From a virus: a stretch of 64,000 nt of DNA. Position 1 is the stretch's first letter. Each line of letters opens with the position of its first letter. The stretch lies in IMG/VR virus record IMGVR_UViG_3300011113_000747, positions 64,001 to 128,000 of that record; one strand, given 5' to 3'. Positions 3,832 to 49,078 of the stretch are shown here, piece after piece. A program made the translations under genes and the position numbers. The notes under the pieces are model-generated. The model was given only the letters and a program-made list of their open reading frames with translations. It was not told the DNA's origin and did no database searches.

Positions 3832-4287
3832 ATGAGTTCCAAAAAAGAAAAAAAAGAACACTACGTAAACTCTGAAGATTTCAAGAGAGAGCTTCAAAAG
3901 TATTACGACTCTGATGTAATGACTGAGATATTAGGTGTATATATTAAAAAAATTGCAACTGGTCTTAGTTATCTACCTAATTTTATTAACTACACCTATA
4001 AAGATGACATGATAGGTGATGCTCTTATTAAGATGTACAGTGCTCTTAAGAACAAAAAGTATGATTTTTCATCTGGATCCAATCCATTCTCGTATTTTAC
4101 AACGATTGCCTTTCATGCTTTCATTAATAGGATTAAAAAAGAACAAAAACATCACGAAACAATCACAAATTATAAGTCGCAGGTATACGAATCTATGATG
4201 ACCGACCCTGAGATGTCAAATTATGTCTATGTAAAGCCTGAAGGTGATGGTGATGACATGGACTCATATTATAACGAAAATGATTAA
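3832..4287 (+). CDS. gp55: Late-transcription sigma factor gp55
   Basis: HYVN..DF, IATGLSYLPNFINYTYKDDMIGDA, NPFSYFTTIAFHAFINRIKKE; upstream of gp47/gp46. Confidence 0.9.
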   Translation: MSSKKEKKEHYVNSEDFKRELQKYYDSDVMTEILGVYIKKIATGLSYLPNFINYTYKDDMIGDALIKMYSALKNKKYDFSSGSNPFSYFTTIAFHAFINRIKKEQKHHETITNYKSQVYESMMTDPEMSNYVYVKPEGDGDDMDSYYNEND

Positions 4288-12790: not shown

Positions 12791-13519
12791 ATGTCAAAAG
12801 TTGTACTAGCATTTAGTGGTGGAATGGACTCTTCAGTCTTGCTTCATATGGCAGCTGAAAAGTTTGATGAAGTGTATTGCTTATTCTTTGATTATGGTCA
12901 AAGACATAAGAAGGAACTTCAATGTGCAGAAAAGCAGCTGAAGAGTCTTAACGAAGGTGTTAAAATGTTGGTGATTGATACACCACTAAATGTTCTTGCT
13001 CCAACCTCATCTCTTACTAATCTGGATATCGATACCCCAGATGTAAGAGAGATGAGAGGTGAGGCTCAACCTAAGAGTTATGTACCATTTCGCAATATGC
13101 TGTTTATCTCATACCTTTTGTCATATGCAGAGGGAGTGGGTGCAGATGCTGTTTGGTATGGTGCAGCTCAAGTTGACTCATTAGCTGGCTATTGGGATGG
13201 AAGTCCAGAATTTTTAAAAGAGATCAATGATGTAGCTGCTTTGAACCGTGAACATCGTATTGTTGTTGAAGCACCGCTTCTTACAATGTCAAAAGCAGAT
13301 ATCATCTTAGAAGGTATTAGACTTGGAGTTAAGTTTAGTGATACTTGGACTTGTTATGCAGGTGAAGAAAAAGCAGATGCATATTCACCTTCCTCAAGTT
13401 TGAGATTACAAGGATTTGCTTCAGCTGGATATATCGATCCAATTCCTTACAAACAAGATTTAAGGAATGTTTGGAAGCAAAATAACTGTAAGAAGATTCC
13501 TTACGAAACTTATCTGTAA
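12791..13519 (+). CDS. queC: QueC-family (7-cyano-7-deazaguanine synthase-like) PP-loop ATPase, atypical Zn site
   Basis: SGGMDS, FDYGQRH..E, YVPFRN, GYWD, MSKADI, TWTCY. Confidence 0.88.
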   Translation: MSKVVLAFSGGMDSSVLLHMAAEKFDEVYCLFFDYGQRHKKELQCAEKQLKSLNEGVKMLVIDTPLNVLAPTSSLTNLDIDTPDVREMRGEAQPKSYVPFRNMLFISYLLSYAEGVGADAVWYGAAQVDSLAGYWDGSPEFLKEINDVAALNREHRIVVEAPLLTMSKADIILEGIRLGVKFSDTWTCYAGEEKADAYSPSSSLRLQGFASAGYIDPIPYKQDLRNVWKQNNCKKIPYETYL

Positions 13520-14550
13520 TACATCTCTTGCTGCATCATCTTCTGATGATATGTCTTAGCTTTGATGTCTTTGTTAGCCACATACTTAATTTTAGGTCTG
13601 TGGCTTTCCTTTACAATCTCTTCTTCATCTTCGAATGGATTTGCTAAACGTCTAGCAGAATCATCTTGAGCAATTGTACCCATTCCATAACCTTGAGTAT
13701 CAATACCAGATCTCATTGATTTAGTTTTAGGTTTTTCTGCTTTATCCTCAAATTCAAAATAACCTGGAGCGTGTACAATAACTTCAAATTCATCTACATC
13801 CAATCCAAGAGCTTTACCTAAAGATGCTTTGATAGATGCTTCGACTTTACCAGCACCTAGCTTGTTAACAATTTTAGTAATAGGTGTTTCTTCACCAAAC
13901 TCTAAGTCAACGCTATTTGAACTACCAACATCAACATCAAATTGTTGATTTTTGTTAGCAGCATTAAAGAACTTTTGGATCTTTTCAATATCTAGTGGTA
14001 TTTCTTGATCTGAAACAATTTCAATAATGGAAGACTTAGCGTCAATTGGTGATGTTGGTGAAATATCATCTGCTGCAGCTTTTTGCGCATCCTTTTTAGC
14101 TTGTTTTTCAGCTGCCATTTCTTCTGGTGTTTTAACTTTACCGAATTGCTCGAAATCCTGTTTTGTTTCAAAAGTTTTACCAATATTTTCACCCTTACCT
14201 CTTGATCTAACTTGCTGTTTACGTTGCAAGAATGAACTTAAGTTACCTTCCATATATTGCTTAAATTCGTCAGCAATTTCGTCTTTAATGACACCACTAT
14301 CGACGAGGTTCTTAATAAATTCACCAGCTTCAGCTGCATATCTTGAACCAGCAAATGCAGTACCTTCTGGTACCATTCCCTTTTCTTTCAAGAAATTGAT
14401 AATAAATTCAAAAACGATTGGTCTAGCAATACCGATCTTTTTATCTTCGATAGCTTTTTTAAGGTAACCTGTATTAAAAAGCTTATCAAAGCGACCTGCT
14501 CTAGCTTCTTCAAGGATTTCTAATTTATTAACAAGGGAATTGAAATTCAT
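13510..14550 (-). CDS. Hypothetical protein, putative late/internal head protein
   Basis: 346-aa ORF, MNFNSLVNKLEILEEA, TAAATA box just upstream. Confidence 0.7.
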   Translation of the reverse strand: MNFNSLVNKLEILEEARAGRFDKLFNTGYLKKAIEDKKIGIARPIVFEFIINFLKEKGMVPEGTAFAGSRYAAEAGEFIKNLVDSGVIKDEIADEFKQYMEGNLSSFLQRKQQVRSRGKGENIGKTFETKQDFEQFGKVKTPEEMAAEKQAKKDAQKAAADDISPTSPIDAKSSIIEIVSDQEIPLDIEKIQKFFNAANKNQQFDVDVGSSNSVDLEFGEETPITKIVNKLGAGKVEASIKASLGKALGLDVDEFEVIVHAPGYFEFEDKAEKPKTKSMRSGIDTQGYGMGTIAQDDSARRLANPFEDEEEIVKESHRPKIKYVANKDIKAKTYHQKMMQQEMYYR

Positions 14551-14598
14551 AGAATTATTTATTGTTTTTTATCTATTAACGTCTATATTTAATATATT

Positions 14599-15300
14599 AT
14601 GTGCGCGATATTTGGATCGACAGATCAATCAATGTTTGAAATATTATTTGAAGCTAATAAAGTAAGAGGTACTTTTGCTTCATCATTAGTAACACTAATG
14701 AAAAATCCAGTTGGTCAAGTTGATGATGTTACAATTCGTAAAGAGCAGGGATTATATTCGTTTGAAAAACTAAAACTCAAACCAAAAAATCATGCTTACT
14801 ATATGGGCCATGTACAGGCTCCTACATCGTCAGCTAGAAAATACAATTATGATACATCACATCCATTTGAGCAAGAAGATTGGCTTGTGTTTCATAATGG
14901 TGTGTTAACTAATCATGAAAGTTTAAATGCAGTTTATTGTAAATGGAATGAAAATCCTGTAGATACATCAGTTATTCCATGTATGCTTCAAGAAAAGTGG
15001 AATGAACTTAAAGAAGGTAAAGCTAAAGCTTCTTCTACTGATGAAGTCAAGATAATTGAAACAATCTGTGAACGACTTCAAGGAACATTTGCTCTCTGTA
15101 TTGTTAACACAACGACCCTTAACGTCTACTTAACTAGACAAGGTAGTACATTATTCTACGACGACAAAGGTAACTACTCTTCAATCAAAGGTAAAACGAT
15201 GGAAGAAGTACCAGAAGGTAAAATTCTCAAACTAACAAAAGATTTCACATTCAAAGCAGTAGGTAAATTCAAACCAAGTTCTCCATTTTTAATCATATGA
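14599..15300 (+). CDS. Class II (Ntn) glutamine amidotransferase
   Basis: N-terminal MCAIFG nucleophile, GHVQAPTS, HPF, HNGVLTN, DTSVI; TTGTTT-N16-TATATT upstream. Confidence 0.85.
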   Translation: MCAIFGSTDQSMFEILFEANKVRGTFASSLVTLMKNPVGQVDDVTIRKEQGLYSFEKLKLKPKNHAYYMGHVQAPTSSARKYNYDTSHPFEQEDWLVFHNGVLTNHESLNAVYCKWNENPVDTSVIPCMLQEKWNELKEGKAKASSTDEVKIIETICERLQGTFALCIVNTTTLNVYLTRQGSTLFYDDKGNYSSIKGKTMEEVPEGKILKLTKDFTFKAVGKFKPSSPFLII

Positions 15301-15950
15301 TCGCATTCGTATCAGCAACCAAAGGTGACCCAACCAAAACATTACTTTATAATAGCACAAAAGATATTCTAGAGGTAGCTTGGGCAGCAAACAATACAGA
15401 CCCACTCCCTGTCGTCTATAATGACGCTATTGCGGACTTTACAATTACAGATTATGACTGGGTTGTATTTGTTCATGACGATGTTATCATTGAATCACCA
15501 GAAGCTATTGAGAGACAAATTTATAATCTTGGTGTTGAATTTGATGTCATCGGTGTAGCAGGTACCAGAGAGGTAAAATTACAAGAACCAGCATTGTGGC
15601 ATCTTATGGGTGATAGAAAACATCACAGAGGAGCTGTAGCACACTTGTGTGAATCTACAGGTAAAAAGTTTATGACCAGTTTTGGTAGCTATCCTGATAG
15701 GGTTGTACTTATCGATGGTGTGTTTATGGCTGCTAAAACAGAAGTACTTCAAAAAGTTAGTTTTGATGAAACCAATCCTGCTGGGTTTCACTTTTATGAT
15801 CTAGACTTTTCTATGGCATGTCATAAGGCTGGTTACAGGGTTGGTGTGGGTGATATAACAATCACACACGCATCACCTGGATTACGACAATTCATAGATG
15901 AATGGAAGAAGGGGCAAGATTGGTTCCTTAATAAATGGGTAACAAAATAA
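15297..15950 (+). CDS. GT-A (GT2-like) glycosyltransferase
   Basis: VFVHDDV (DxD-type), VIGVAG, IDGVFMA, FDE, FHFYDLDFS; ATGA-coupled to the GATase. Confidence 0.8.
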   Translation: MIAFVSATKGDPTKTLLYNSTKDILEVAWAANNTDPLPVVYNDAIADFTITDYDWVVFVHDDVIIESPEAIERQIYNLGVEFDVIGVAGTREVKLQEPALWHLMGDRKHHRGAVAHLCESTGKKFMTSFGSYPDRVVLIDGVFMAAKTEVLQKVSFDETNPAGFHFYDLDFSMACHKAGYRVGVGDITITHASPGLRQFIDEWKKGQDWFLNKWVTK

Positions 15951-15981
15951 AAAAAGGCGGCTTAATTAAGCCGCCTTTTTT
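15950..15981. terminator. Bidirectional Rho-independent terminator
   Basis: Perfect palindrome aaaaaaggcggcttaa|ttaagccgcctttttt between convergent genes. Confidence 0.92.
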
Positions 15982-15982
15982 G

Positions 15983-17242
15983 TTATGCTAATATCTGCTC
16001 TATTGGTTCAGCCTCGTAAACCACCTCAACTGGTCTTAAATCTGGAGTCATCAACTTTGTTCTTGGTGATATACCAATTAAATGGAACATTGTAGCAGCA
16101 AATTGCTGCGGTGTAACTGGATCTGAGTCAGGCTCTGAAGCTAATGCATCAGACGTACCATAAGCATAACCTGCTTTAACACCACCACCAGCTAAAACTG
16201 TTGAGAATACCTTTGGCCAATGGTCTCTTCCGTTTGTAGCATTAATTTTAGGTGTACGACCAAACTCAGATGTCACCATTACAAGGGTTGAATCAAGTAA
16301 TCCACGTTGTTTTAAGTCATTAATAAAGGTTGCAAAGGCTTTATCAAAGTTAATCATATTAGATTCATATGCACCTTTAAGATTTGAGTGGTGATCCCAT
16401 GAACCATACGTTACTGTAACCATTCTTACACCTGCTTCAACAAGACGACGAGCTAGAAGTAAACGTTGACCAGCAGCATTACGGCCATATGCATCGCGAA
16501 CCACATCAGGCTCTTTAGAAAGCTCAAAAGATTCACGAGCTTGTGTTGATGATAACATTGAATATGCATCATTATAGAAAGAATCCATTGCTTTTACTGC
16601 ATCTACGTTTGATTCACGTGTTTTGAAGTAATCATCCACCGCTCCAAGCAATGCACGGCGACGATCTAATTGTTTATCGGAAACATCCTTAGGTGTATTG
16701 AGGTCTTTCACAACAAATCCCGGATCTTCTGGATTAGAACCTAAAGCAAACGGTCCATACTTGGTAGACAAGTAACCGGTGCCGTTTTCAGGTGCAAACT
16801 GATTAGGAACTAACACATAAGCAGGTAGATTGTTACGATTTCCTAATTCATGGCTAATAACACTACCAAATGATGGGTAGTTTAATGCTGGAGATGGTTT
16901 ATAACCAGTGAGCATGTTATGTGTTCCTCTTTCATGAGCTGCTTCACCGTGAGTCATTGAACGAATTACTGTAAGATTGTCAGAGACCTTTGCTGTTTCC
17001 TTTAGAAGTTCACCAAAATGAACACCATCTATCTTTGTCTTAACAGGAGCAAATGGTCCTCTATATTCTGGTGAGCCATTTACCTTATAATCCCACGAAT
17101 CTTGATGTGAAATACCACCAGGTAAGTAGATTTGAACTACTGATGTAGCTTTTGCAGGTGTTTGTGCTTGAGCTTTTAATAATTGTGGTAAACTTACACA
17201 ACCAGCAGCACCAATTCTTAGAATTTCACGTCTGTTATACAT
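15983..17242 (-). CDS. DUF1501 family protein with Tat signal peptide (copy A)
   Basis: NRREIL twin-arginine leader; GGISHQDSWDYK, VIRSM.H...H, SFGSV, ARRLVEAGVR, WDHH, DL..RGLLDSTLV, SEFGRTP, GRDHWP. Confidence 0.92.
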   Translation of the reverse strand: MYNRREILRIGAAGCVSLPQLLKAQAQTPAKATSVVQIYLPGGISHQDSWDYKVNGSPEYRGPFAPVKTKIDGVHFGELLKETAKVSDNLTVIRSMTHGEAAHERGTHNMLTGYKPSPALNYPSFGSVISHELGNRNNLPAYVLVPNQFAPENGTGYLSTKYGPFALGSNPEDPGFVVKDLNTPKDVSDKQLDRRRALLGAVDDYFKTRESNVDAVKAMDSFYNDAYSMLSSTQARESFELSKEPDVVRDAYGRNAAGQRLLLARRLVEAGVRMVTVTYGSWDHHSNLKGAYESNMINFDKAFATFINDLKQRGLLDSTLVMVTSEFGRTPKINATNGRDHWPKVFSTVLAGGGVKAGYAYGTSDALASEPDSDPVTPQQFAATMFHLIGISPRTKLMTPDLRPVEVVYEAEPIEQILA

Positions 17243-17247
17243 ACTCT

Positions 17248-17253
17248 TATTTA
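17248..17253 (-). promoter_or_regulatory. Late-type TAAATA box of DUF1501 copy A
   Basis: TAAATA-agagt-ATG; same spacing as before sheath and tube genes. Confidence 0.6.
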
Positions 17254-20798: not shown

Positions 20799-21313
20799 GT
20801 CCAGAAGAAATTGAACAACAAAAAATGCTACTCAATTTAATGGGTAGCATTTATGGTGAAGCCAAAAAGATTGATCAAAATCTAGTTGGTACATCTCTTA
20901 ATTTGAGACCTCAAAGTGAGAACGTCAAGCAGTTGTTCGAGGGTGCGCTGAGATCTACTCAGCCACCCGCTCCACCACCACAACCGCAGATTGTGCATGT
21001 ACCACCACCTAATACTGTTAATTTACCGCATGTTGTACAACCAGCACAAGAATCTAAACCAATTCAATTAGTTGACAATTCAGATCTTGTATCTACATTA
21101 AAAGGTATTGAAAGCAATCTTGGTAAGTTGGTAGAATTATTCACACAATATGAAGTTAAAGTTAAAAAAGCAACAAATCGAAAAGTTTCTAGAGTCTCTG
21201 GCGAAGATAAACGACCAGTGCATAGTGAAAGTGGAGAAGGACAAGATATCGTCGATAGTAACATCGACGGACAACACGTTGATCCTTTACGCAACTCTAA
21301 ACCATACGAATGA
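20795..21313 (+). CDS. Hypothetical protein with Pro/Gln-rich linker
   Basis: ATGA-coupled to gp32; 3' end overlaps gp45 by 164 nt. Confidence 0.6.
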   Translation: MSPEEIEQQKMLLNLMGSIYGEAKKIDQNLVGTSLNLRPQSENVKQLFEGALRSTQPPAPPPQPQIVHVPPPNTVNLPHVVQPAQESKPIQLVDNSDLVSTLKGIESNLGKLVELFTQYEVKVKKATNRKVSRVSGEDKRPVHSESGEGQDIVDSNIDGQHVDPLRNSKPYE

Positions 21314-21860
21314 ATCCGAAAGATCCTTGTGTATACCGGATTTAAAAAAGCTTAATCGTGTTTTAGACTGTATTAGTAGTGATGAAATTGAACTCCAAGT
21401 TAATCAAAATAACTTGGAGTATAAGTCTCCAGAGATAAAGTTTAAGTATCACCTATTTGAAGATGATTTTATTACACCTCCTTCAATTAAACCAGATAAA
21501 ATTATGTCTTTCGAGACTGATTTTACCTTTGAACTAATGAAAGATGACTTTAGTAAAATCAATAAAGCTTCAACATTTACAACTGAAACGAATAAGATTT
21601 ATTTTTATTTAGAAGATGGGGTTGTTAAGTGTGAACTTACAGATAAAGCTAGACATAATACAGATTCATTTCAATTACAGGTTGGTAAAAATATAGCAGG
21701 AGCTGAATTGAAGAATTTACCTGTTAATTTTGATAATTTCAAACTTATCAATTCAGATAACGTTAAAGTGTCTATTAATAACAGATACGGCGTACTTATA
21801 TTTGATATTGATCAGGAGCCGCTTAAATTAAGATATATTTTATCATCACTTACTCAATAA
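21150..21860 (+). CDS. gp45: Sliding clamp gp45
   Basis: L..LAKIN, I.DLKKLNRVLD and duplicated clamp fold pattern; 236 aa. Confidence 0.8.
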   Translation: MKLKLKKQQIEKFLESLAKINDQCIVKVEKDKISSIVTSTDNTLILYATLNHTNESERSLCIPDLKKLNRVLDCISSDEIELQVNQNNLEYKSPEIKFKYHLFEDDFITPPSIKPDKIMSFETDFTFELMKDDFSKINKASTFTTETNKIYFYLEDGVVKCELTDKARHNTDSFQLQVGKNIAGAELKNLPVNFDNFKLINSDNVKVSINNRYGVLIFDIDQEPLKLRYILSSLTQ

Positions 21861-22217: not shown

Positions 22218-22586
22218 ATGTTTATGAGTGATGAACCTAAAAGGCGTAAAAAGAAAAAAACCACGCCACCAGCTCCAAAACAGGAAACTGAATGGGTACC
22301 ATCTGATAATGATGTAAGAGACTTAATTAATAGCATTCTTTCCAACAGAATAAAAGAAGTTAAGAAAATTAAAGACGTTGAGGATATTAATAATGCTCTC
22401 GTTTGCACAATAAGTGAGTTTCTTGATAGTTTTATGATATTAGGATACAATAGTGAAGGTATACCTATTGCTTTAACAAAAGCTAACACACCTCTTGATG
22501 CAGATGCGTTACATTCTCTTTTAGTTAAGTTCTTTTCAATTCAAATGGTTAAATTTAATGGTAAATATGGTGGGGAAGATTTTTAA
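22218..22586 (+). CDS. Hypothetical protein
   Basis: 122-aa ORF with basic N-terminal patch KRRKKKK. Confidence 0.6.
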   Translation: MFMSDEPKRRKKKKTTPPAPKQETEWVPSDNDVRDLINSILSNRIKEVKKIKDVEDINNALVCTISEFLDSFMILGYNSEGIPIALTKANTPLDADALHSLLVKFFSIQMVKFNGKYGGEDF

Positions 22587-22851
22587 ACGTGAGCCAGAGC
22601 CTAAAGCAAAAATACCCTATGCAGTACAAAATGGTCACTATGTAGGTGAAATGTTTGTTTATATGGAGAAAGACGATAAAAACTTTTATTTTATCTCTAT
22701 ACCTAAAAATATTAACAGAGAAGTCCCTAAAGAGAAGTTTTTCTTCGGTATTGAAAACAAAATACTAGAAGAAGTTGAAAAACTACCCAATAACATTTAT
22801 AGTCTTTTAAAATCGCAATATTTCTACAACAAAAAGAGAAATACTAAATAA
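22558..22851 (+). CDS. Hypothetical protein
   Basis: 97-aa ORF; exact start uncertain. Confidence 0.55.
   Translation: MVNMVGKIFKREPEPKAKIPYAVQNGHYVGEMFVYMEKDDKNFYFISIPKNINREVPKEKFFFGIENKILEEVEKLPNNIYSLLKSQYFYNKKRNTK
22845..22850 (+). promoter_or_regulatory. Late-type TAAATA box of the DUF1549/1553 gene
   Basis: taaataataaaag; identical 13-mer precedes the next gene at 24645. Confidence 0.6.
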
Positions 22852-22863
22852 TAAAAGACTATT

Positions 22864-24651
22864 ATGAAAAAACTCATCTTATTACTAGTAAGTATATGCA
22901 CCTTATCATTTGGTGCTACATTAGAACAGCTTAATAACTATAGTGGTTGGGTTGATTCTGTGTTACAAAAACAATATGTAGCTGCTAATGTTCAACCTCT
23001 TGGTAGGGTTAATGACGATACTTTTGTTCGTCGTGCATATCTTACAATTATTGGTAGAAACCCCACATACGAAGAGTATGAAATGTTCAATAAGGCGACT
23101 GATCCTAATAAAAGACAAGGATTAATTCAGTTTCTTATTAATCACCCTGGTTATACATCACATATGTTTAACTTTTGGGCTGAGTCGTTAAGATTGCGTG
23201 ATAGAATCAACACCACCAATAACTTCTCTGGTGGTCCTTATATTGATTATGTGAAGGATTCTATTGCAGCTAATAAATCTTATTCGAAATTTGTTACAGA
23301 TCTATTAACAGCAACAGGTTCTTATTACGATAATCCAGCTACTGGCTATTTCTATCGTGATTTAGGAATGCCTTTAGATAATCTAATTGGCACAGGTAAA
23401 GTGTTTATGGGTACTGATATTGGATGCGCACAATGCCATGATGATCCGTTCCAAGACTTCACTCAAATGCAGTTCTATAAGATGGCTGCTATGTTTAATC
23501 AGGTAGAACTTAGAGGTCGTGGAAGAGATAAAGACCCAGCTGTTGCAGCTCGTCAAAAAGCATTGAGAGAAGAAATTGATGCTTTGATTAAAGCTGATCC
23601 AATGAAGAATCGTGGATTGAACAATACAATTAATAACTTTGTTGCTGCTATGAGAGCTAATCTTGAAGTAGATGAAAAGCGCGAACTAAAACTACCACAT
23701 GATTACAACTACAAAGATGCAAAGCCATTTGATACAGTTGTACCTGCAGTTCTTTCTGGTAAAACAGAGATTAAAAACAAAGACGACATGAGAAAAGATG
23801 TTGTTGCTTGGTTGGTTAACCCAGAACACCCAACATTCACAAAGAACATTGTGAACCGTTACTGGAAATGGGTGTTCGGTAAGCATATCATCGAAGATTA
23901 TGATAATATCTATGATGATGAAAAGCTTAATAGTGAGCTTATGAATACACTTGCTGCAATTATGGTAAGTGTAAATTATGATACCAAACAGTTCATGTAT
24001 GTATTATACAATACCAAGTTATTTCAACGTGAACTCTACGATGGTGCATATTCAAATTCAGATAAGTTTGTGTTTATTGGACCAGTTAAACAACGTTTAA
24101 CTGCAGAGCAGATGTGGGATTCAGTTATTTCTATTGCTCTTGATAAACCAGATACATTCAAATTGACTTTCCAAGATGAATATGTAAAAGTAATGAGATA
24201 TTCATTAGAAGATCTCACTATTGATAAATTAAAAGCAAAGAATGAGGAATATCAGAAGATTATTCGTTCAAAATACGAGACTGCTCCAAAATATCGTAAT
24301 TACCCTCTTGTAAGAGCATCAGAGGTTAATGATAATGGACCCGTTAATACTATTCTTGAACAGCTTGGTCGTAGTGATCGTGAATTAATTGACACTTCAT
24401 CACGAGAAGGTTCAGTTACACAGGTTATTTCTTTCATGAACGGTCAATTAGCTGAAGTAGCAGTCAACAAAGAGACAAACCTTGCAAAGTTACTTGCAGG
24501 TAAGTCTCCAACCGATACCATTGATATTATCTTTAAGTCTGTATTAGTAAGAAGACCAACAATTGATGAAAAATCTAAGTTTGTTGGTGTGCAGGACGAT
24601 GATATCATCTGGGCACTAGTAAACAGTTCGGAGTTCAAATTCAATAAATAA
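22864..24651 (+). CDS. DUF1549 + DUF1553 (PSD-type) protein with Sec signal peptide and CxxCH motif
   Basis: MKKLILLLVSICTLSFGA signal; D.TFVRRAYLTIIGRNPT.EE, FMG..IGCAQCHD.PF, AWLV.PE.P.FTKNIVNRYW, RLTAEQMWDS, DIIWALVNSSEF. Confidence 0.93.
   Translation: MKKLILLLVSICTLSFGATLEQLNNYSGWVDSVLQKQYVAANVQPLGRVNDDTFVRRAYLTIIGRNPTYEEYEMFNKATDPNKRQGLIQFLINHPGYTSHMFNFWAESLRLRDRINTTNNFSGGPYIDYVKDSIAANKSYSKFVTDLLTATGSYYDNPATGYFYRDLGMPLDNLIGTGKVFMGTDIGCAQCHDDPFQDFTQMQFYKMAAMFNQVELRGRGRDKDPAVAARQKALREEIDALIKADPMKNRGLNNTINNFVAAMRANLEVDEKRELKLPHDYNYKDAKPFDTVVPAVLSGKTEIKNKDDMRKDVVAWLVNPEHPTFTKNIVNRYWKWVFGKHIIEDYDNIYDDEKLNSELMNTLAAIMVSVNYDTKQFMYVLYNTKLFQRELYDGAYSNSDKFVFIGPVKQRLTAEQMWDSVISIALDKPDTFKLTFQDEYVKVMRYSLEDLTIDKLKAKNEEYQKIIRSKYETAPKYRNYPLVRASEVNDNGPVNTILEQLGRSDRELIDTSSREGSVTQVISFMNGQLAEVAVNKETNLAKLLAGKSPTDTIDIIFKSVLVRRPTIDEKSKFVGVQDDDIIWALVNSSEFKFNK
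24645..24650 (+). promoter_or_regulatory. Late-type TAAATA box of DUF1501 copy B
   Basis: TAAATA-ataaaagcc-ATG; overlaps the last codons of the upstream gene. Confidence 0.55.
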
Positions 24652-24659
24652 TAAAAGCC

Positions 24660-25895
24660 ATGAATAACTTAACAAGACGTAATTTCGTGCTTAATCTTGC
24701 TTCTGCAGGTTTAGGTGTAACCGTTCTACCTCACGTTGCAGCTGCTCCAGCTAGCAAAAAAGCAGAACATATCATTTATTTGTTTATGAATGGTGGTATG
24801 AGTCATTTAGATACATTTGATCCTAAAACTAATGCAGAAGTTAAGGGTGAATTTAATTCTATTACCACAAATGCAGGTTATGAAATCTCAGAACACCTAC
24901 CTTTGATGGCTAAGCATGGTGATAAGATGGCAGTTGTTCGTTCCATGATGGTTACAACAGGTGATCACGCTGGAGCGCAATATTTACAAAGAACTTCATT
25001 CAAGAAGATTGGTACAATTGTACACCCTAACATGGGAGCTTGGATGTGTCATTATACTGAAGATGGAAAACCAAAAGTCATTCCACAAAACGTATTAATC
25101 GGTGGTGGAGCTGATCATCCTGGTGCTGGTTGGATGCCTAAGAAGTATTCTCCTATTCCAGTTGCAGATCCAATGAGAGGTCTTGATAATACTAAGCTTA
25201 AGAATACAGCAGAGTTCGCAAAGAGGGTGCAAATCCTAGAAAAGCTTGAAAAAGATGCAAATAAGATTATTAACCCAGCTCAAAAGTCATATGCTGAGTT
25301 TTATGATCAAACAATCCGTCTTCTTAACTCTAATGAGCTTGATGTATTTGATCTTTCTAAGGTAGATCAAGCAACAAGAGACAAATATGGTAATAATCGT
25401 TTTGGTCAAGGGGTTTGCTTAGCAAAACGCTTGATTGAGCAAGGTAAATGTAAGTTCATTGAAGTTTCTGATGGTGGTTGGGATACACACGTTAATAACT
25501 TTGAGTCTCTTGAAACCAAACTTGGTATTCTTGATCAAGCAGTCAACGCACTTATCGAAGACCTTAAAGCATCAGGTCTTTACGATAAGACCCTTATCGT
25601 AATTGCAACAGACTTCGGTAGAACACCAAATATTAACATTAATAATGGTAGGGATCACCATCCAGGTGCTTTCTGCGGTGTTCTTATCGGAGCAGGCATT
25701 AAAGGTGGTCAAGCTTATGGTAAATCTGATGATAAAGGTATGAAAGCTGTTGAAAACATTGTAAGTCCATCTGATTTCAATGCTACTATTGCAGCTGCTG
25801 CCGGGTTACCAATTGATGAAATTGTAATGTCACCTGAAAATCGACCATTCAAGATCGCAGATAAAGGTAAACCTATTCAAGCACTTTTAGCTTGA
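24660..25895 (+). CDS. DUF1501 family protein with Tat signal peptide (copy B)
   Basis: LTRRNFV twin-arginine leader; GGMSHLDTFDPK, VVRSM, HP.MGAW, GGWDTH, DLK.SGL.DKTLIV, TDFGRTP, GRDHH. Confidence 0.93.
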   Translation: MNNLTRRNFVLNLASAGLGVTVLPHVAAAPASKKAEHIIYLFMNGGMSHLDTFDPKTNAEVKGEFNSITTNAGYEISEHLPLMAKHGDKMAVVRSMMVTTGDHAGAQYLQRTSFKKIGTIVHPNMGAWMCHYTEDGKPKVIPQNVLIGGGADHPGAGWMPKKYSPIPVADPMRGLDNTKLKNTAEFAKRVQILEKLEKDANKIINPAQKSYAEFYDQTIRLLNSNELDVFDLSKVDQATRDKYGNNRFGQGVCLAKRLIEQGKCKFIEVSDGGWDTHVNNFESLETKLGILDQAVNALIEDLKASGLYDKTLIVIATDFGRTPNININNGRDHHPGAFCGVLIGAGIKGGQAYGKSDDKGMKAVENIVSPSDFNATIAAAAGLPIDEIVMSPENRPFKIADKGKPIQALLA

Positions 25896-25919
25896 TAATA
25901 TAAGGAAATCGTCTATAAT
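25892..25919 (+). promoter_or_regulatory. Sigma70-like promoter of rnh
   Basis: TTGATA-N16-TATAAT, 6 nt before ATG 25926; -35 box contains the DUF1501 TGA stop. Confidence 0.72.
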
Positions 25920-25925
25920 AGGGGT

Positions 25926-26792
25926 ATGAAAACTCTTATTATAGACGGAAATAACCTTGTTCATCGTTGTTTCTGGGTTGCAAACAACCAGACTAAAGGT
26001 GAAGACTCTTATCTCCATGTATATATGGTGCTTAACTCTGTTAAGACATATGTAGAGAAGTTCAAACCTGATAAAATTTACTGTTGCTGGGATGAGAAGA
26101 AAGATTACGGTGTAAACGAACGTAAAGAAATGTTCGCTGATTACAAAGGTAATCGTGATCGTGAATATAGTGCTCAAGTTCATGATAAAAACGAGCATAT
26201 TAAGCATTTACTTAGCTGTCTTGGGGTTAAAAACTTCTTCCCATTACGTTTAGAAGCAGATGATTGCATGGCTTTCCTTTGCAAAGAGCTTCCAGGTAAG
26301 AAAGTGGTGGTTACAGTTGATAAGGACCTTTGTCAGTGCATTGATACTAATGTTATTGTGTATGATCCTATTAGAAAGCAGGAGATTAATATTGATAACT
26401 TCTTAGATATAATGAAAGTTACTAAAGAGCATTATCTTATAGAGAAATGCTTTAGAGGTGATAAGTCTGATAATGTACCAGGTGTAACTGGGATGGGTAA
26501 AAAGAAGATTGAAAAGTTTTTCATTGGTGCTTATAGGACTACGAATGAGCAAGATGCTGAATTTAAAAGAAATTATGATCTCTTTAGACTTGATAGATAT
26601 ACCATGCATACAGATGAACATTCGTGGTATAAAGAGCAGGTAGACGTTGAACAAAAACATGATTTCAAACAATTTAAGTTGTATTGTGAAGATCTTAAAT
26701 TAGATTCTATTCTGAAAAAGCAAGATAGATGGTATGATATCTTCTGTTTTGGTAATGATTACCAGAGCTATCTCATGAATATGTTAAAATGA
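25926..26792 (+). CDS. rnh: T4-type RNase H / 5'-3' exonuclease
   Basis: IIDGNN, YKGNR, LEADD, TVDKDL, GDKSDNVPGV. Confidence 0.92.
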   Translation: MKTLIIDGNNLVHRCFWVANNQTKGEDSYLHVYMVLNSVKTYVEKFKPDKIYCCWDEKKDYGVNERKEMFADYKGNRDREYSAQVHDKNEHIKHLLSCLGVKNFFPLRLEADDCMAFLCKELPGKKVVVTVDKDLCQCIDTNVIVYDPIRKQEINIDNFLDIMKVTKEHYLIEKCFRGDKSDNVPGVTGMGKKKIEKFFIGAYRTTNEQDAEFKRNYDLFRLDRYTMHTDEHSWYKEQVDVEQKHDFKQFKLYCEDLKLDSILKKQDRWYDIFCFGNDYQSYLMNMLK

Positions 26793-29082: not shown

Positions 29083-29337
29083 ATGAAAAAAGATAATATT
29101 TATATTTCAGTCAATACAAAGAGTGGTAAAGAACAAATGCATATTGATCATTATGCAAGGTGGCTTTGTTTGATTGAAGCAATCGATTATATCGATAAAA
29201 AGTGTGAGGATATGGGAACAGATATTGAAAGTGTTGATTGGGTCAAGCCAATTGCATTCCAAAAATACATCGATGAGCGTTTTCACTCAATGAAGCATGA
29301 TCTTAAGTACGAATACACAAATGGTCTATTAGAATAG
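29083..29337 (+). CDS. Hypothetical protein
   Basis: 84-aa ORF; TATAAT (29071-76) 6 nt before ATG. Confidence 0.65.
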   Translation: MKKDNIYISVNTKSGKEQMHIDHYARWLCLIEAIDYIDKKCEDMGTDIESVDWVKPIAFQKYIDERFHSMKHDLKYEYTNGLLE

Positions 29338-31515
29338 ACTTACTCTAATAGGTACATCAATTATTTCAGGGTTTAAATTAGCAACACCCGCATTAGGTAC
29401 ACCAGTTTGACCGAAAAGGTTATATCCCCATGAATATAATTCATTGGAATTACTTTTAGCAAGTACTGTTTTATTGATACCATTTTGTTCGTATGAAAAT
29501 ACTTCAAAATCAGTCCAAGTTACACCTTGTGGTCTAATAACCTGTTGTAAGGTATTTTGTTTTGTGACATTACCTTCACCTCTACCATCTATACCACCCT
29601 GCACAAATCCAGATACATAAATATCACCTGAACTAGTTAAAACAAACAGTGTAGCGTTGTTACCAATACCAACCATTTTAGCTTTTTCTACTCCAAAGAT
29701 ATTAGGTACTGGTGTAGTTGCGAGAGATTTATTCTGGTTATCACTGGTACCAAGAGCTCCATTACCATTATTACCCCAAACTCTAATCTCTTTAGAGCTA
29801 AGTACTGCACACACACTTACGTTGCCATTTCCAGTAGGGTCTCCATTTGTTGTAATGTATCTTACACCTGTAAGAGTTTGTGTACTTGATGAAACTGGAG
29901 TCCAAAAAGTCTGAAGAGTTTTAAAGCCTGGAACACCTAAGAAAGAACCGTTACCACATGCACCTTTACCATTATTACCACAAGACCAAACTTTACCCCC
30001 TGTTAAAATATATGAAGTAGAACCAGATGTATAAACATCATCGGCGGACATTTGTTCAGATACCAGCACAGGTAGTGTAACCGACTTTTTAGGGTTAACT
30101 TGAACAGAAGATAAAGCCCAAAGTGGTGAATCTCTGAATGTTGTGGTGTTGGTAGGGGGTCTACCTAAAGCAATATTATTACCTGTACCAGTTGTTGCTG
30201 CGCTAAGACCCAATTGACCAGCTCCGTTCCACCCAACTACATGTACACCGTTAGTTGTATCAATTGCAAGAGCATATCCAAGTGTATTTGAGTTTGAAGC
30301 AGTAATTTTGCGGAGTGAAACACCACCGATTGAACCTGGGGTGGCTACATTATTAATGCAAAGTGGCGTTCTAGTATTAATTAAATCACCTGTACCTAAT
30401 TGACCAATTTTATTTGATCCCCAAGCCCAAAGATTACCACCACTTATTGCATAAACAGAGCAATTAGTAGCACCTATATCATTACCTAAACTAATTGCAA
30501 GACTATCAATACCTGAAAGTGGTGATGTTGTTGGTCCTGAACCAGAAGGTATAACTGTAAATGTATTTCTTCTTGTGGTGTCGCCTAGACCTAACTGTCC
30601 TGCTGTATTATCACCTGCAGAATAAACATAACCTCTGTTGGTAAGTAAAAGAGTTGTTAACCCTGTGGTGCAAATATTAGTAACATATTCTGAAGTAAGA
30701 CCTGTTACAAATGAAACGGGAATTTGTGGAAAATTACCGTAAGCGTTTTGATAAAACCCCATACCACCGTTTTTTGTATTACCATATAAACCACTTGTTC
30801 TTATTTTCCTATCATTATCGTTTATAAATGTAACATTATTACCTGTATTACCTCTACCGTTATTATCGTCACCATTTATTAAAAAAGAAGATAATGGATT
30901 TAGTCTAGAACCAGGTTGTGCTGCTATTCTACTTTCAACATAACCTATAGTAGCAATCCTCGTACTAGGTTCTCCAACTGAAGGTGTTGAAGCTGAAATT
31001 CCACCTGTAAATGTACCACCAGAAAGTGGCATAAACTTACCATCTACATAACCTTTATTAATTAACTCTGTAGAATTAACAGGAGTTAAATTAGATGTTA
31101 TATTACCTGTGATGGTGCTACCAGTTAGTGCAACAAAATTTGCAAATACATAAGCTGGTGATACACTACTCACACTTATCACCGCAGCATCAACATATGA
31201 TTTACTAGCAGCTTTAGAACCTTCTGATAAATCACTTGAGAGGTAAATAAAGCAACTATTATTACCAAAAACATATAAGTTAGCACCAGTAAGAGCAGTT
31301 AGTGTACCAGTAAATGTATCACCTGATGCCTGCAAGTAACGTGTATCATTAGGTGTTAATAAACTACTTAAAATATTACTAGTTAGTGAACCGTAATCAG
31401 TTTTATATGATACTGATGATTCTCCATCTACCACATAGAAAAAATCTCCTGAAGTGTATGTACTTAATGATGAAAGTGTTGTGAGTTTAGTTCCTGGAAC
31501 GATATAGGTGCTCAT
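29329..31515 (-). CDS. Tail fibre / receptor-binding protein with RCC1-repeat beta-propeller
   Basis: Fibre repeats (L.SG.TFTG, K.YVD) then RCC1 repeats VYSAGDNTAGQLGLGD, LWAWGSNKIGQLGTGD, VWSCGNNGKG, LYSWGYNLFGQTG. Confidence 0.8.
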   Translation of the reverse strand: MSTYIVPGTKLTTLSSLSTYTSGDFFYVVDGESSVSYKTDYGSLTSNILSSLLTPNDTRYLQASGDTFTGTLTALTGANLYVFGNNSCFIYLSSDLSEGSKAASKSYVDAAVISVSSVSPAYVFANFVALTGSTITGNITSNLTPVNSTELINKGYVDGKFMPLSGGTFTGGISASTPSVGEPSTRIATIGYVESRIAAQPGSRLNPLSSFLINGDDNNGRGNTGNNVTFINDNDRKIRTSGLYGNTKNGGMGFYQNAYGNFPQIPVSFVTGLTSEYVTNICTTGLTTLLLTNRGYVYSAGDNTAGQLGLGDTTRRNTFTVIPSGSGPTTSPLSGIDSLAISLGNDIGATNCSVYAISGGNLWAWGSNKIGQLGTGDLINTRTPLCINNVATPGSIGGVSLRKITASNSNTLGYALAIDTTNGVHVVGWNGAGQLGLSAATTGTGNNIALGRPPTNTTTFRDSPLWALSSVQVNPKKSVTLPVLVSEQMSADDVYTSGSTSYILTGGKVWSCGNNGKGACGNGSFLGVPGFKTLQTFWTPVSSSTQTLTGVRYITTNGDPTGNGNVSVCAVLSSKEIRVWGNNGNGALGTSDNQNKSLATTPVPNIFGVEKAKMVGIGNNATLFVLTSSGDIYVSGFVQGGIDGRGEGNVTKQNTLQQVIRPQGVTWTDFEVFSYEQNGINKTVLAKSNSNELYSWGYNLFGQTGVPNAGVANLNPEIIDVPIRVSLF

Positions 31516-44502: not shown

Positions 44503-46893
44503 ATGGCAAGACGTATTCAATCACCAGGAGTTCAAATTACCGAATTCGATTATTCAGAAAGACCACCATTGGCAACAGGCACTTCTGTTTTTGTAACAGG
44601 GTTTGCTGATCAAGGTCCAACAGACGAAATTAATTTCATTCAAAGCATCAACGATTTCACAAATCTTTACGGTGCTCCAACCAATGCAGCTGAACGTTAC
44701 TTTTACCACACAGTAAAAGGTGTTCTTAACTCAAATGCAACAGTTATCACCAACAGAATGCCTTATGGTTCTGGGGGTGGGGATGGTTTCGGCTCATATT
44801 ATACAGCACTAGTTTACCCTACTAAACTTGTTAATCCTAGCCTTTCTGGTACAACAGGTATTACAAGCAACCTCAATGCTGTATCCGGTGTATATTTCCT
44901 CGGTGCACCTAAATCATTATCACTTACCAAATCTGAGTATGAGTCTATTATTGATGGTACAGCTTTCAATTGGTCTGCTACAGCAACTGAACTAAGCGGT
45001 TTATCTGCTCTTTCAACTTTAGGTAGTGCTGGTGTTATTGTTTTAAATGAAAGACAAACAGCAATCGATCAATCATTCCAAGGTTATTACATTGGGTTAG
45101 CTGATAACTTTGATGCTGATAACCAAAATTCAGATTTCAATAAAATCCGCAACATTAAAACTGTTACAAATGTTGGAACTGGTTCTGGTATTACAAATTT
45201 TATTGATGTACCAACCACAACTCTTGCTTTCCAAATTACATCTTTAGCATCTGCGAATGTAAATTCTCTTGCAAGATCAATTGAAACTGGTTCAGATGGT
45301 TACATTATTGGTAATAGATTAGAGTTTGATGATGTACTTAACGTTGGTATTTACAAACTCACAAATAGTGTATTCCAAGACGATCCAACAAAACTTGTAT
45401 ATGCTCTTCAAGAACTCTATACAGGTTCTGCTACAAACAATTTTAGACAAGTAGCAGCTCCTACAGGTGGTGAACCTGTAACTTATAGCTTACAAACTAT
45501 TGTTGGTAACAGAAGTCCAAATGCTACAATGTTGATTAATCCATATATCAATAACGTTGCATCTGATAGTGTGGGTAGAGGTTCATCTTATGATACTAAT
45601 TCACAATATATTACTCTCAAGAAAGTAAGATTGCTAACACAAACCCTTGTTGATGGTGTAAGTAGCGCAACCCTCTCTGCTTCTATTGGATTTTCTAATC
45701 AAAGTGGTGTTTCAGGTGGTTGGGGTACAATTATTAATCAATTAAGTACATCTCTTGGTTTAGCAGATTCAATTTACCCACTTGGTACATACAATCCGGT
45801 TGGTAATACAAATTTAAAAGTGATCGGTAATGTACCAACTAAAGTTGAAAAATCCTTAGGTAAGGTAAAAGATCCTGAAATCTTTGATGTTGATGTTCTT
45901 GTTGAAGGTGGTCTTGGTACCATTTATACCTTCACAACAATTGCTAGTACATCAGCATATGATGATACTATTTCTAATTCAACATTTACCACGGAGTTGA
46001 GTGAACTTCAAGGAGGATTAGTTACATCAAATGATATTCTTACGAATTATCAAGCAGTAGCTAACAAGTTCCTTGAACTTGCACAACCTGAAAAGGATGG
46101 TGGTAGGGGTGATACATTCTTTGTAGCAGATCCTATCAGACAGTTCTTTATTACTGGTGCTAATTCTAAGTTAATTGATAAGACCAGCAGCTCTAACAAC
46201 TACCAGAAGATTTATTACGCACTTAGAAACCTCTATAGTAATTATGATACATCTTATGCAGGTGCTTACCCTAACTGGTTAGCAGTTATTGATGATGTAA
46301 CCGGATTACAAACATGGGTACCACCTTCAGGTTTTGTAGCTGCTATTATGGCTAATACCGATGCAGGTACCGGTCCATGGGAAGCACCAGCAGGTTTTAA
46401 TCGTGGTATAATTAGAGGTGTTGTTGATGTTGCTTGGAATCCAAATCAACGTCAACGTGATGACCTTTACAAAATTAGTTTGAACCCAATCGCTTCATTC
46501 CCAGGTCAGGGTACAGTAGTTTATGGTCAGAAAACACTTCAGAATAAGCCAAGTGCTTTCGATAGAATTAATGTACGTCGTAACTTCCTCTTCATGGAGA
46601 AGACAGTTAAAGATATCATGAAGTTCTTCGTATTTGAACCAAATACTAAGTTTACAAGAGATAGAGTTCTTGCAACCCTTAATCCGTTCTTTATCAATAT
46701 CCAAGCTAACGGTGGTCTTTATGACTTCCTTGTAGTCTGCGATGAGAGAAATAACTCAGATGCGACAATCGAAGATAATACTTTAGTTGTTGATATTTAT
46801 CTCAAGCCAACAAGAACAGCAGAATTCATCCTAGTTAACTTCTATGCTACAAGACAAAGCGCTAGCTTTGAAGAATTAGTAGCAAGAGCATAA
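44503..46893 (+). CDS. gp18: Tail sheath protein gp18
   Basis: SPGV.ITE.D, WVPPSG, PWEAPAGFNRG, RDDLY...LNPI, SAFDRINVRR, FEPN..FTR, KPTRTAEFI. Confidence 0.96.
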   Translation: MARRIQSPGVQITEFDYSERPPLATGTSVFVTGFADQGPTDEINFIQSINDFTNLYGAPTNAAERYFYHTVKGVLNSNATVITNRMPYGSGGGDGFGSYYTALVYPTKLVNPSLSGTTGITSNLNAVSGVYFLGAPKSLSLTKSEYESIIDGTAFNWSATATELSGLSALSTLGSAGVIVLNERQTAIDQSFQGYYIGLADNFDADNQNSDFNKIRNIKTVTNVGTGSGITNFIDVPTTTLAFQITSLASANVNSLARSIETGSDGYIIGNRLEFDDVLNVGIYKLTNSVFQDDPTKLVYALQELYTGSATNNFRQVAAPTGGEPVTYSLQTIVGNRSPNATMLINPYINNVASDSVGRGSSYDTNSQYITLKKVRLLTQTLVDGVSSATLSASIGFSNQSGVSGGWGTIINQLSTSLGLADSIYPLGTYNPVGNTNLKVIGNVPTKVEKSLGKVKDPEIFDVDVLVEGGLGTIYTFTTIASTSAYDDTISNSTFTTELSELQGGLVTSNDILTNYQAVANKFLELAQPEKDGGRGDTFFVADPIRQFFITGANSKLIDKTSSSNNYQKIYYALRNLYSNYDTSYAGAYPNWLAVIDDVTGLQTWVPPSGFVAAIMANTDAGTGPWEAPAGFNRGIIRGVVDVAWNPNQRQRDDLYKISLNPIASFPGQGTVVYGQKTLQNKPSAFDRINVRRNFLFMEKTVKDIMKFFVFEPNTKFTRDRVLATLNPFFINIQANGGLYDFLVVCDERNNSDATIEDNTLVVDIYLKPTRTAEFILVNFYATRQSASFEELVARA

Positions 46894-46912
46894 TGGGTAA
46901 CTAAATATTATT

Positions 46913-47485
46913 ATGGCACAAAATATCCAACAATTCTACAAAACAGCAAAAAATAGAGACTTCTCAAGAGATTTCCTCTTGAGAGTCACTAATATGAGTG
47001 TTGCAGGTCTTCCTCAGATTACTGAGGATGATCTTGTTTATGTAAAAACAGCTACATTACCTGGTAGAGATATCGGTAACGTTGCTGTACCTTACATGGG
47101 CTTACAGTTTAACGTTCCTGGCGCTGCATCATACCCTGGTTCAGATTCATATAAACTTACATTTTATCTTGATGATCCTGGTCAAAACCAGAATGATTTA
47201 AGATCTAAGTTTGAAGCTGCATCAAGAAATATTTTTGATGATCTTACTTCAACAGGTCTTTATCAAGTTCCTGGAAATGAATCACAAATTGTGTTAACCC
47301 AACTTAATAAAAGCCTTGCACCAACCGGTAATGCATATAAGCTTGTAGGTGTCTCTATTAGAAAAATTGGTAATATTGAATATAAAATTGCTGAAGGTAA
47401 AGGTGAAACTCTTTCACTTGATGTTGATTTTGCATATCACTATTACACAACAGAACAATTCCCTGATAGAGCTGTTACTAATTAA
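46913..47485 (+). CDS. gp19: Tail tube protein gp19
   Basis: Follows the sheath gene; KTATLPG..IG...VPYMG, F.YHYY; TAAATA 5 nt upstream. Confidence 0.8.
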   Translation: MAQNIQQFYKTAKNRDFSRDFLLRVTNMSVAGLPQITEDDLVYVKTATLPGRDIGNVAVPYMGLQFNVPGAASYPGSDSYKLTFYLDDPGQNQNDLRSKFEAASRNIFDDLTSTGLYQVPGNESQIVLTQLNKSLAPTGNAYKLVGVSIRKIGNIEYKIAEGKGETLSLDVDFAYHYYTTEQFPDRAVTN

Positions 47486-47496
47486 TAAGTAATTAA

Positions 47497-48207
47497 ATGC
47501 CAAGAAGAACAGAACAATTTCTTGCTTATCTGGGTAAGAATTGGAACAATTCGTTACCTCTCAGAAATCTCTGGGAGGTAAACTTTTCTGTACCCCTAGC
47601 TCGCGAGATCAATTTAGATGTAGGATCACCCACTGTAACACAAGGTGGAGCTGTTGATTTAGAATCAAACATACAAAGAGTAATTGAGACTTATGAAGGA
47701 GCAAAAAGATTTAGCGTCATACCAGGTTTTTTTACCTCACAGAGTAATGGTGAAGTAAGTAATATTTCATTTTTAGCACAGAGTATATCACTACCAACAG
47801 ATGCTTTTGATGTTTCTGTATCAAATAATGATAATGCTGGTGGTTATAGAGGCGGCTACATTGGAGGTGATAGAACACAATATCAACCACTCACCATCTC
47901 GTTTTTAGAAACTAATATTGATGTATTTGAATATCTACTAAGACCATGGACTATTGCATGTGCATACAAAGGTCTCATTGAAGATGGTATTCCAGGTACT
48001 AATATTAAAGCAGGTATGGAAGTTATACAGTATAGTAGACAGGGGTTTAATGTTGATACGTGGTTACCACGTAAACAATATTCTTTTCAAGGTGTTGTGC
48101 CGATTTCGATTGAGGGTGATAAACTCACTTACGAACCAAACGATATTAGTAATATTGTAAGATCCGCATCGTTTACGTTTAAAGATTACACAATGAAAAA
48201 ACCTTAA
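47497..48207 (+). CDS. Tube-like baseplate initiator, gp54-like
   Basis: AQSISLP, L.ISFLET, Y.F..VVP.SI....L.Y, F.FKDY tube-fold pattern. Confidence 0.6.
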   Translation: MPRRTEQFLAYLGKNWNNSLPLRNLWEVNFSVPLAREINLDVGSPTVTQGGAVDLESNIQRVIETYEGAKRFSVIPGFFTSQSNGEVSNISFLAQSISLPTDAFDVSVSNNDNAGGYRGGYIGGDRTQYQPLTISFLETNIDVFEYLLRPWTIACAYKGLIEDGIPGTNIKAGMEVIQYSRQGFNVDTWLPRKQYSFQGVVPISIEGDKLTYEPNDISNIVRSASFTFKDYTMKKP

Positions 48208-48243
48208 CCTGGTTTAGTTAATTACACTGTATAAATACCATCG

Positions 48244-49074: not shown

Positions 49075-49078
49075 TTAT

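Follow-up and report, generated by a model that had tools for sequence, protein, structure and literature searches.

In bacteria of the Planctomycetota, Verrucomicrobiota and Lentisphaerae (hereafter PVC bacteria), DUF1501 genes form a module with genes for PSCyt1, PSCyt2 and PSD1 domain proteins (Kamneva et al. 2012, PMC3542564; He et al. 2017, PMC5615132). The function of this module is unknown, and it has been tied to electron transport or to the use of carbohydrate oligomers (PMC3542564, PMC5615132). Here we analyzed a phage-encoded version, found in a 64,000-nucleotide stretch of DNA (the window) that covers bases 64,001-128,000 of the virus record IMGVR_UViG_3300011113_000747, a complete genome of 184,542 bp with terminal repeats. 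Two adjacent genes, termed A and B, encode a PSCyt2/PSD1 protein and a DUF1501 protein, respectively, and a third, gene C, encodes a second DUF1501 protein elsewhere in the window; the whole genome holds two DUF1501 genes and one PSCyt2 gene. With its T4-like replication and virion genes and 24 tRNA calls, the virus is a complete T4-like phage, probably of a Verrucomicrobia host. A preliminary description of the window had presented A and B as its best candidate for a new system. They are instead the known DUF1501 plus PSCyt2/PSD1 module of Kamneva et al. moved into phages, where it is real and widespread, and not a categorically new system.

The phage pair shares with the bacterial module the Pfam domains, the Sec and Tat leaders, the CxxCH motif and the adjacency of the two genes, and with its closest host subfamily also the A-then-B order and the single CxxCH. 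It differs in being phage-encoded behind late-type promoters, in having a single A gene whose product is shorter (median 594 versus 723 residues) and shows no PSCyt1 or carbohydrate-binding add-on, in fixed replacements (H194D, Q503R and N322H in A; E318D in B), and in forming old, phage-only clades that seem to have been exchanged between lineages.

Both genes are intact open reading frames (ORFs) separated by 8 nt (Table 1), as first described. Gene A matches PF07583 (PSCyt2/DUF1549, E = 1.9e-35) and PF07587 (PSD1/DUF1553, E = 1.1e-26), and gene B matches PF07394 (DUF1501, E = 4.5e-98, 329 bits against a cut-off of 27), so the domain assignment of the preliminary description stands, as do its export signals. 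By eye and by hydropathy, A has a hydrophobic, Sec-type N-terminal leader and no other hydrophobic segment, and B has the twin-arginine motif RRNF; RRxF is present in nearly all of 90 aligned DUF1501 sequences. Neither protein has a membrane anchor or a conserved lipobox, and a lipoprotein assignment for A was rejected because Cys12 is not conserved. PSCyt1 gave no Pfam match in A, which has only one CxxCH and whose PSCyt2 domain begins at residue 30, leaving no space for an N-terminal PSCyt1; a genome-wide search for PF07635 matched nothing, its controls also being without a match. The preliminary description had recognized the pair and had omitted both C and the CxxCH of A (C188-H192). It had also placed the pair between gp45 and rnh: rnh does lie directly 3' of B, but three small ORFs (117, 122 and 97 aa) separate A from gp45 (sliding-clamp family, ~21279-21860).

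The data support A and B as a genuine, selected, phage-maintained PVC-type exported module of a T4-like phage. The same gene order, including both flanks, is found in the independent assemblies ERZ4201055 and SRR12487047 and in a 187-kb JGI contig, indicating that the join is not chimeric. The best 120 protein matches are 42-100% identical, and our survey of IMG/VR returned 20-26 loci with A or B, at several T4-like sites. Pairwise Nei-Gojobori dN/dS values (several distant pairs being saturated) are 0.04-0.12 for A, 0.03-0.15 for B and 0.10-0.13 for C, similar to those of the replication genes (0.03-0.16). The GC content at third codon positions (GC3) of A (0.26) and B (0.235) is like that of the adjoining replication genes (0.25-0.31), which agrees with the AT-rich codons noted earlier; across phages the GC3 of the module follows each phage backbone (0.17-0.43) and not the hosts (median of 0.65 for bacterial B homologues). 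A relative, L231 (L numbers designate loci), shares the replication block and lacks A, B and C at these sites, which makes the three genes accessory. The earlier claim that a T4-like phage maintains the pair is thus borne out by the Pfam matches, by dN/dS, by the many phages that carry it and by this relative. In L231 (8701-10292, compared with window 22558-26789) the primase gene comes immediately after the 97-aa ORF and rnh is also missing at this site; rnh may have arrived with or beside A+B.

Host derivation, viral flanks, purifying selection and accessory status would together qualify A+B as an auxiliary gene set with a putative metabolic role. The auxiliary metabolic genes psbA, pstS/phoA and pmoC of T4-like phages are likewise host-derived, mobile, under purifying selection and expressed from phage promoters; unlike them, A+B is a two-subunit exported system with an unassigned reaction and no PHROG family. 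Neither family nor isolate was found for the module in PHROGs, INPHARED and NCBIfam, with no match among 50,697 deposited phage records, and the literature searched contained no described phage example, as the preliminary description had supposed.

T4-like phages, both freshwater-type and marine, carry A+B at various sites: inside the replication block (L001, L002, L004 and L006), before the gp15-gp20 head block with C alongside (L003, L008, L010, L011, L015 and L018), and elsewhere (L012, L033/34, L039 and L041). More distant phage contigs also carry the pair, which in one TARA scaffold lies directly after gp23, and L063/L069 represent a second, independent capture. The A and B proteins of L003 are 86% and 92% identical to those of this phage, versus only 46-73% for the head genes, and L001 is as close as L002 in A/B (pS of 0.56/0.40 versus 0.53/0.39), its flanking genes being much further away. 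Both patterns suggest that A+B was exchanged between phage lineages; some of the protein identity could simply reflect conservation.

Phylogenetic comparison with host copies gave phage-only clades for B (11 rows, support 97) and A (15 rows, SH-aLRT 98, with all checked members in phage contexts); they point to no donor lineage, since among the matches listed they nest in no sampled host group. The best bacterial B matches are 42-48% identical, and all named ones among those listed are from Verrucomicrobiota or Planctomycetota; A is mostly 28-40% identical to its closest host subfamily. Most of the best-matching bacterial B genes directly follow an A-type gene with one CxxCH, and the A-then-B order holds in most host loci, a shared arrangement from which we derive the phage pair from this single-CxxCH subfamily. 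The preliminary description had spoken of a complete host module. A PVC-type exported module it is, but not a simple current host copy, as the phage clades are old, the proteins shorter and residues invariant in hosts changed. The host itself probably belongs to the Verrucomicrobiota, order Verrucomicrobiales, the order being assigned from the relationship of C (below); phage tRNAs match Verrucomicrobiota genomes in 123 of 201 cases and Planctomycetota in 44 of 201, at identities of at most 92%, which is weak host evidence. No conserved neighbor recurs in more than 11 of the 80 host A+B loci, mostly from one Opitutia clade, so the host loci provide no substrate clue.

The predicted structure of A (pLDDT 88) is mostly helical. 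C188, C191 and H192 are 100% conserved in 260 A homologues, and M169, conserved in 97%, is a candidate distal haem ligand. The residues after the haem motif read CxxCH-D-D in the phage clade and CxxCH-[DN]-H in bacterial copies (59, among the matches listed), and phage-clade A carries fixed changes at 8 of 66 host-invariant positions, including H194D, N322H and Q503R. H194D is not strictly phage-specific, the bacterial copy P0216 also having this H-to-D change. Fold searches with A returned no solved match at E<=0.001 (best Z of 5.7 to a phycobilisome linker, within noise), and the lack of a match does not amount to a new fold.

When A, haem and B were predicted together, the ipSAE was 0.69 versus 0.00 for the best of three controls, with contact agreement between runs of at least 90% and partner pLDDT of at least 87; the ipSAE mark was reached by 58 of 80 solved pairs and 2 of 110 mismatched pairs, a calibration that holds only roughly here. 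A and B are predicted to bind each other. A helical hairpin of B (residues 176-222) would pack on the C-terminal helices of A (513-593), and A185-188, next to the haem motif, lies in the predicted interface with B117-121 and B393-395. We know of no solved complex resembling A-B.

The model of B (pLDDT 91) has the alkaline-phosphatase superfamily fold (Z of 16-21), with ENPP6 (Z 20.8, root-mean-square deviation 3.0, 245 aligned residues), PafA (20.4) and sulfatases (~18) as the closest solved structures. PDB sequence searches with the module gave weak sulfatase/LtaS matches only, and an Atlas fold search with B retrieved only DUF1501 proteins. Residues H103, W274, D275, H277, F319, R321, G330, R331, H333 and R395, with the FGR/GR motifs, do not vary across 90 DUF1501 sequences; H49 is invariant within the B-type subfamily, and position 318 is D or E. 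According to DSSP, the helix following the second strand opens with H103, which precedes T-[S/G] by 9 residues, the spacing of the CxPxRxxLxTG nucleophile motif of sulfatases and nucleotide pyrophosphatases/phosphodiesterases (NPPs). From this spacing, DSSP and a hidden Markov model alignment, without superposed coordinates, H103 appears to occupy the nucleophile register. In sulfatases and LtaS, the metal-binding D-N/D-H aligns with [D/E]318-F of B, in which Phe replaces the His/Asn.

B thus shares with the superfamily (NPP/ENPP, PafA, formylglycine sulfatases, LtaS/EptA/PbgA) the core alpha/beta fold and the acidic metal-binding residue that follows the central strand, but differs from it by a His in the nucleophile register, [D/E]FG in place of DHG/DNG, the WDxH spacing, a partner with a haem motif and the absence of a membrane anchor. 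CxPxR, a Ser/Thr nucleophile and a first-strand Asp were not found in B, and position 44 is variable. Where formylglycine sulfatases have C/S-x-P-x-R, B has an invariant His, and it has neither the Ser/Thr nucleophile nor the first-strand Asp nor the D-H ligand of alkaline phosphatases and NPPs. Judged by its residues, B would keep a His/Asp-rich site without a canonical nucleophile, and so would not be a standard sulfatase or phosphatase. Phage-clade B has fixed changes at 4 of 85 host-invariant sites, including E318D.

The T4 late promoter consensus is TATAAATA. No hexamer is more strongly enriched upstream of ORFs in this genome than TAAATA, which precedes 58 of 206 ORFs (5.4 expected), in most cases by 11-12 nt from the start codon. 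Genes with this box include A, B and C, nrdAB, a superoxide dismutase (SOD) gene and those for head, tail, baseplate and amidase proteins; gp41, gp32, gp45, gp61, gp43 and rnh have none. The T4 late sigma factor gp55 reads late promoters that have no -35 element (PMC2988020), and a gp55-like gene is present in the window (Table 1). The A box is kept in 11 of 14 phage loci (two of the misses being mis-picked starts) although the upstream genes differ, and the C box in 8 of 10 close homologues. The B box overlaps codons of A and is absent from more distant copies, so A-B may be one late operon. Directly after B, rnh has its own promoter of early/middle type, indicating that the module is transcribed separately from rnh. 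A sigma-70 promoter scan gave chance levels. Based on these motifs, A, B and C are apparently late-expressed. The early-type promoter ATAAGGAA-N6/7-TATAAT, 11-12 nt before the start codon, has about 18 copies in the small-gene region and a single one ahead of rnh (genome 107, 1095, 5379 and 161263-184522; window 25900).

Gene C matches DUF1501 with E = 2.2e-108 (363 bits, cut-off 27) and is 32% identical to B. It is 60-62% identical to Verrucomicrobiota and at most 58% identical to Planctomycetota proteins, and the phage C clade (support 100/99) has as its sister group (98/95) Prosthecobacter together with three related Verrucomicrobiota copies. Its DUF1501 subfamily heads the four-gene cluster DUF1501-PPC-PSCyt1/Big_2/PSCyt2/PSD1-PSCyt1/WD40 of Kamneva et al. 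2012 (PPC/Big_2/WD40 cluster; L224, L225, L254 and L255), from which the phage lacks the three partners: in tblastn searches of the complete phage genome, the three L255 partner genes matched only the PSCyt2/PSD1 region of A. Stand-alone C-type copies are known in Prosthecobacter too, and single PVC genomes contain 22-30 C-like matches. An obligate A-B-C trio was ruled out, since C is missing from a 93%-complete phage that carries A+B, and there are complete phages with DUF1501 but not PSCyt2; A+B and C are separable, yet clustered repeatedly. C would be a separate auxiliary gene, its product probably joining the host's own four-gene PSCyt complex. Many other viral contigs (L084-L121) have arrays of 2-4 divergent DUF1501 genes, with PSCyt2 absent from the fetched flanks; in L101, a complete 158-kb genome, PSCyt2 is missing altogether.

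Taken together, A and B could well form a late-made periplasmic heterodimer, with haem on A and a His/Asp metal site on B, that works as an oxidoreductase and adds to an activity of the host periplasm; we hold this reading tentatively. The analysis shows the genes and their families, the fold, the conserved residues, the selection, the spread and the promoter motif; we infer the expression timing, haem attachment, metal binding, redox chemistry and benefit to the phage as follows. The gp55 sigma factor would drive A, B and C late in infection, as their motifs suggest. A would be exported unfolded by Sec and receive one c-type haem on its CxxCH from the maturation system of the host, since no cytochrome c assembly gene was found in the phage genome. 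B would fold in the cytoplasm around the remodelled His/Asp metal site on its alkaline-phosphatase scaffold and exit via Tat. In the periplasmic heterodimer, the haem-binding segment of A would touch B in the stretch after its His103 helix. The most likely chemistry would be a metal-dependent oxidation at B with electrons passed via the haem of A, proposed because a His replaces Ser/Thr/formylglycine in the nucleophile register and because the partner is a putative haem protein. As a phage auxiliary system, the pair would top up the host activity during the shut-off of host transcription. The periplasmic dehydrogenases SorAB and FccAB consist of a Tat-exported catalytic subunit and a Sec-exported cytochrome c. 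Their export logic and two-subunit layout, the latter as predicted, are common to A-B by analogy only, and no sequence or fold relationship was found.

Several points weigh against an oxidoreductase. The literature searched contained no biochemical data for any DUF1501 or PSCyt2 protein, and the solved relatives of the B fold are all hydrolases or transferases, none being an oxidoreductase. A is unlike any solved cytochrome c fold, so that CxxCH, rather than holding haem, could serve as a metal site or be disulfide-bonded. The phage-clade replacements (H194D, Q503R and N322H in A; E318D in B) indicate that the activity may differ from that of the host proteins, and the TAAATA class also contains nrdAB and SOD, and thus marks timing rather than function.

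Few unexplained families of PVC bacteria are as large as the DUF1501/PSCyt modules, whose high paralogue redundancy has defeated genetics. The short, single-copy, strongly selected phage pair, with a confident interface model and a few invariant residues, offers a practical route to their first biochemistry. It is possible, although we put it forward with more reserve, that PSCyt2/PSD1-DUF1501 proteins at large are an undescribed class of periplasmic haem-coupled oxidoreductases built on an alkaline-phosphatase scaffold, with a His-rich metal site replacing the nucleophile, and that T4-like Verrucomicrobia phages domesticated a minimal, re-tuned version as an extracytoplasmic auxiliary enzyme, late-expressed and exchanged between lineages. 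A redox enzyme would mean new chemistry for the alkaline-phosphatase fold and a new, periplasm-acting type of phage auxiliary gene. The module genes also serve as a host marker for T4-like Verrucomicrobia phages, a large uncultured group.

Of the functions suggested in the preliminary description, nutrient scavenging and envelope remodelling remain rivals to a haem-coupled enzyme. In the former case B (and C) would be His- or water-based hydrolases freeing periplasmic phosphate or sulfate for phage nucleotide synthesis, with A a scaffold or regulator and its CxxCH structural. We regard this as credible but unlikely. The closest solved folds of B are indeed phosphodiesterases, phosphatases and sulfatases, Tat export is typical of metal-loaded phosphatases, and the genome has a PhoH-like ORF (by eye) and nrdAB with the same TAAATA box. 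PSCyt genes of hosts often adjoin sulfatases (PMC5615132), and a sulfatase-like gene was seen by eye near 7 of the 80 host loci. A hydrolase of this kind is hard to reconcile with a protein that lacks CxPxR, the Ser/Thr nucleophile and the first-strand Asp and has [D/E]FG in place of DHG; moreover, no gene for a formylglycine-generating enzyme was found in the phage genome, and the universal CxxCH and the M169 of A would be left unexplained.

It is rather unlikely that the late periplasmic pair instead modifies the envelope or the phage receptor, thereby aiding lysis, stopping progeny from binding debris or blocking superinfection. The module has late-type promoters in common with the phage amidase and structural genes, the envelope-modifying LtaS, EptA and PbgA/YejM are among the fold matches and gave faint NCBIfam matches, and the PSD1 part of A weakly resembles phycobilisome-linker and RsaA N-terminal helical domains (Z 2.8-5.7, within noise). 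However, unlike LtaS, EptA and PbgA, neither A nor B is membrane-anchored or has a conserved lipobox, the genomic locations of the module are unrelated and show no constant association with lysis or tail genes, and the dozens of host paralogues suggest a metabolic family. Superinfection exclusion, also put forward in the preliminary description, fits less well because the promoters are of late type; exclusion genes are usually early.

Quite improbable, in our estimate, is that the phage copies are altered decoys that bind the PSCyt/DUF1501 partners of the host and redirect or block them, e.g. to silence a stress or defence signal. Changes at 8 of 66 host-invariant positions in A (H194D adjoins the haem motif) and E318D in B would fit such a role, as would C being carried without any partner and complete phages having DUF1501 genes and no PSCyt2; but the core residues (CxxCH, H103, D275, H277 and H333) are all kept, A and B travel jointly as a self-sufficient pair, and at least one bacterial protein (P0216) has the same H-to-D change after CxxCH. 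Finally, one related contig has an in-frame A/B deletion, but the idea that A+B is an assembly chimera or neutral, recently acquired host DNA is refuted almost beyond doubt by identical flanks in independent assemblies, more than 100 near homologues, dN/dS of about 0.1 or less, GC3 that tracks each phage backbone, and phage-only clades.

Table 1 Positions of the module genes and associated features in the window.
Feature	Position	Strand	Description
gp55-like late sigma factor	3832..4287	+	phrog_234, E 8e-29; likely reader of the TAAATA boxes
Hairpin	15950..15981	.	14-bp, A/T runs at both sides; directly downstream of C, terminator-like, before a converging glycosyltransferase gene
Gene C	15983..17242	-	419 aa; Tat-type DUF1501 of the four-gene-cluster subfamily, captured separately
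Late-type box of C	17248..17253	-	TAAATA
Late-type box of A	22845..22850	+	TAAATA
Gene A	22864..24651	+	595 aa, intact ORF; PSCyt2 (DUF1549) + PSD1 (DUF1553), one CxxCH; predicted partner of B
CxxCH codons of A	23425..23439	+	C188-A-Q-C191-H192
TAAATA of B	24645..24650	+	Overlaps the last codons of A; may be partly a by-product of the C-terminus of A
Gene B	24660..25895	+	411 aa, intact ORF; Tat-type DUF1501, alkaline-phosphatase-superfamily fold
rnh promoter	25892..25919	+	Early/middle type, TTGATA-16-TATAAT containing ATAAGGAA; right after B

Further observations concern related loci and other genes of this phage. In L042/L054 (IMGVR_UViG_3300023174_000047; L054:12378-12779), an in-frame deletion has fused A, after its first ~51 codons, to the final ~87 codons of B, the fusion point being an 11-nt repeat, CATTAATGATG, common to A and B of the relative L011; C is intact there, and the fusion is either a true loss of the pair or an assembly artefact. 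One phage group has a flavodoxin/FMN-reductase-like ORF between C and A (L003:9177-9995, with similar ORFs in L010, L011 and L042; Pfam E = 6.5e-5, below the cut-off). In a distant phage contig (L246:5266-6470), DUF1501 is split in two (292 + 108 aa) beside an intact A homologue. The window also encodes queC-like, amidotransferase-like and glycosyltransferase proteins (12791-15950); together with possible folE/queD/queE/queF-like ORFs seen by eye outside the window (genome ~25007 and 46347-49352), these would suggest a deazaguanine pathway. The Fe/Mn SOD-like gene (genome 143038-143649) and nrdA/nrdB (genome 13258-17017) each have a late-type TAAATA box. Lastly, a 728-aa RCC1-repeat protein is encoded amid tail-like genes (window 29329-31515) and is variable, with 29-53% identity between relatives.

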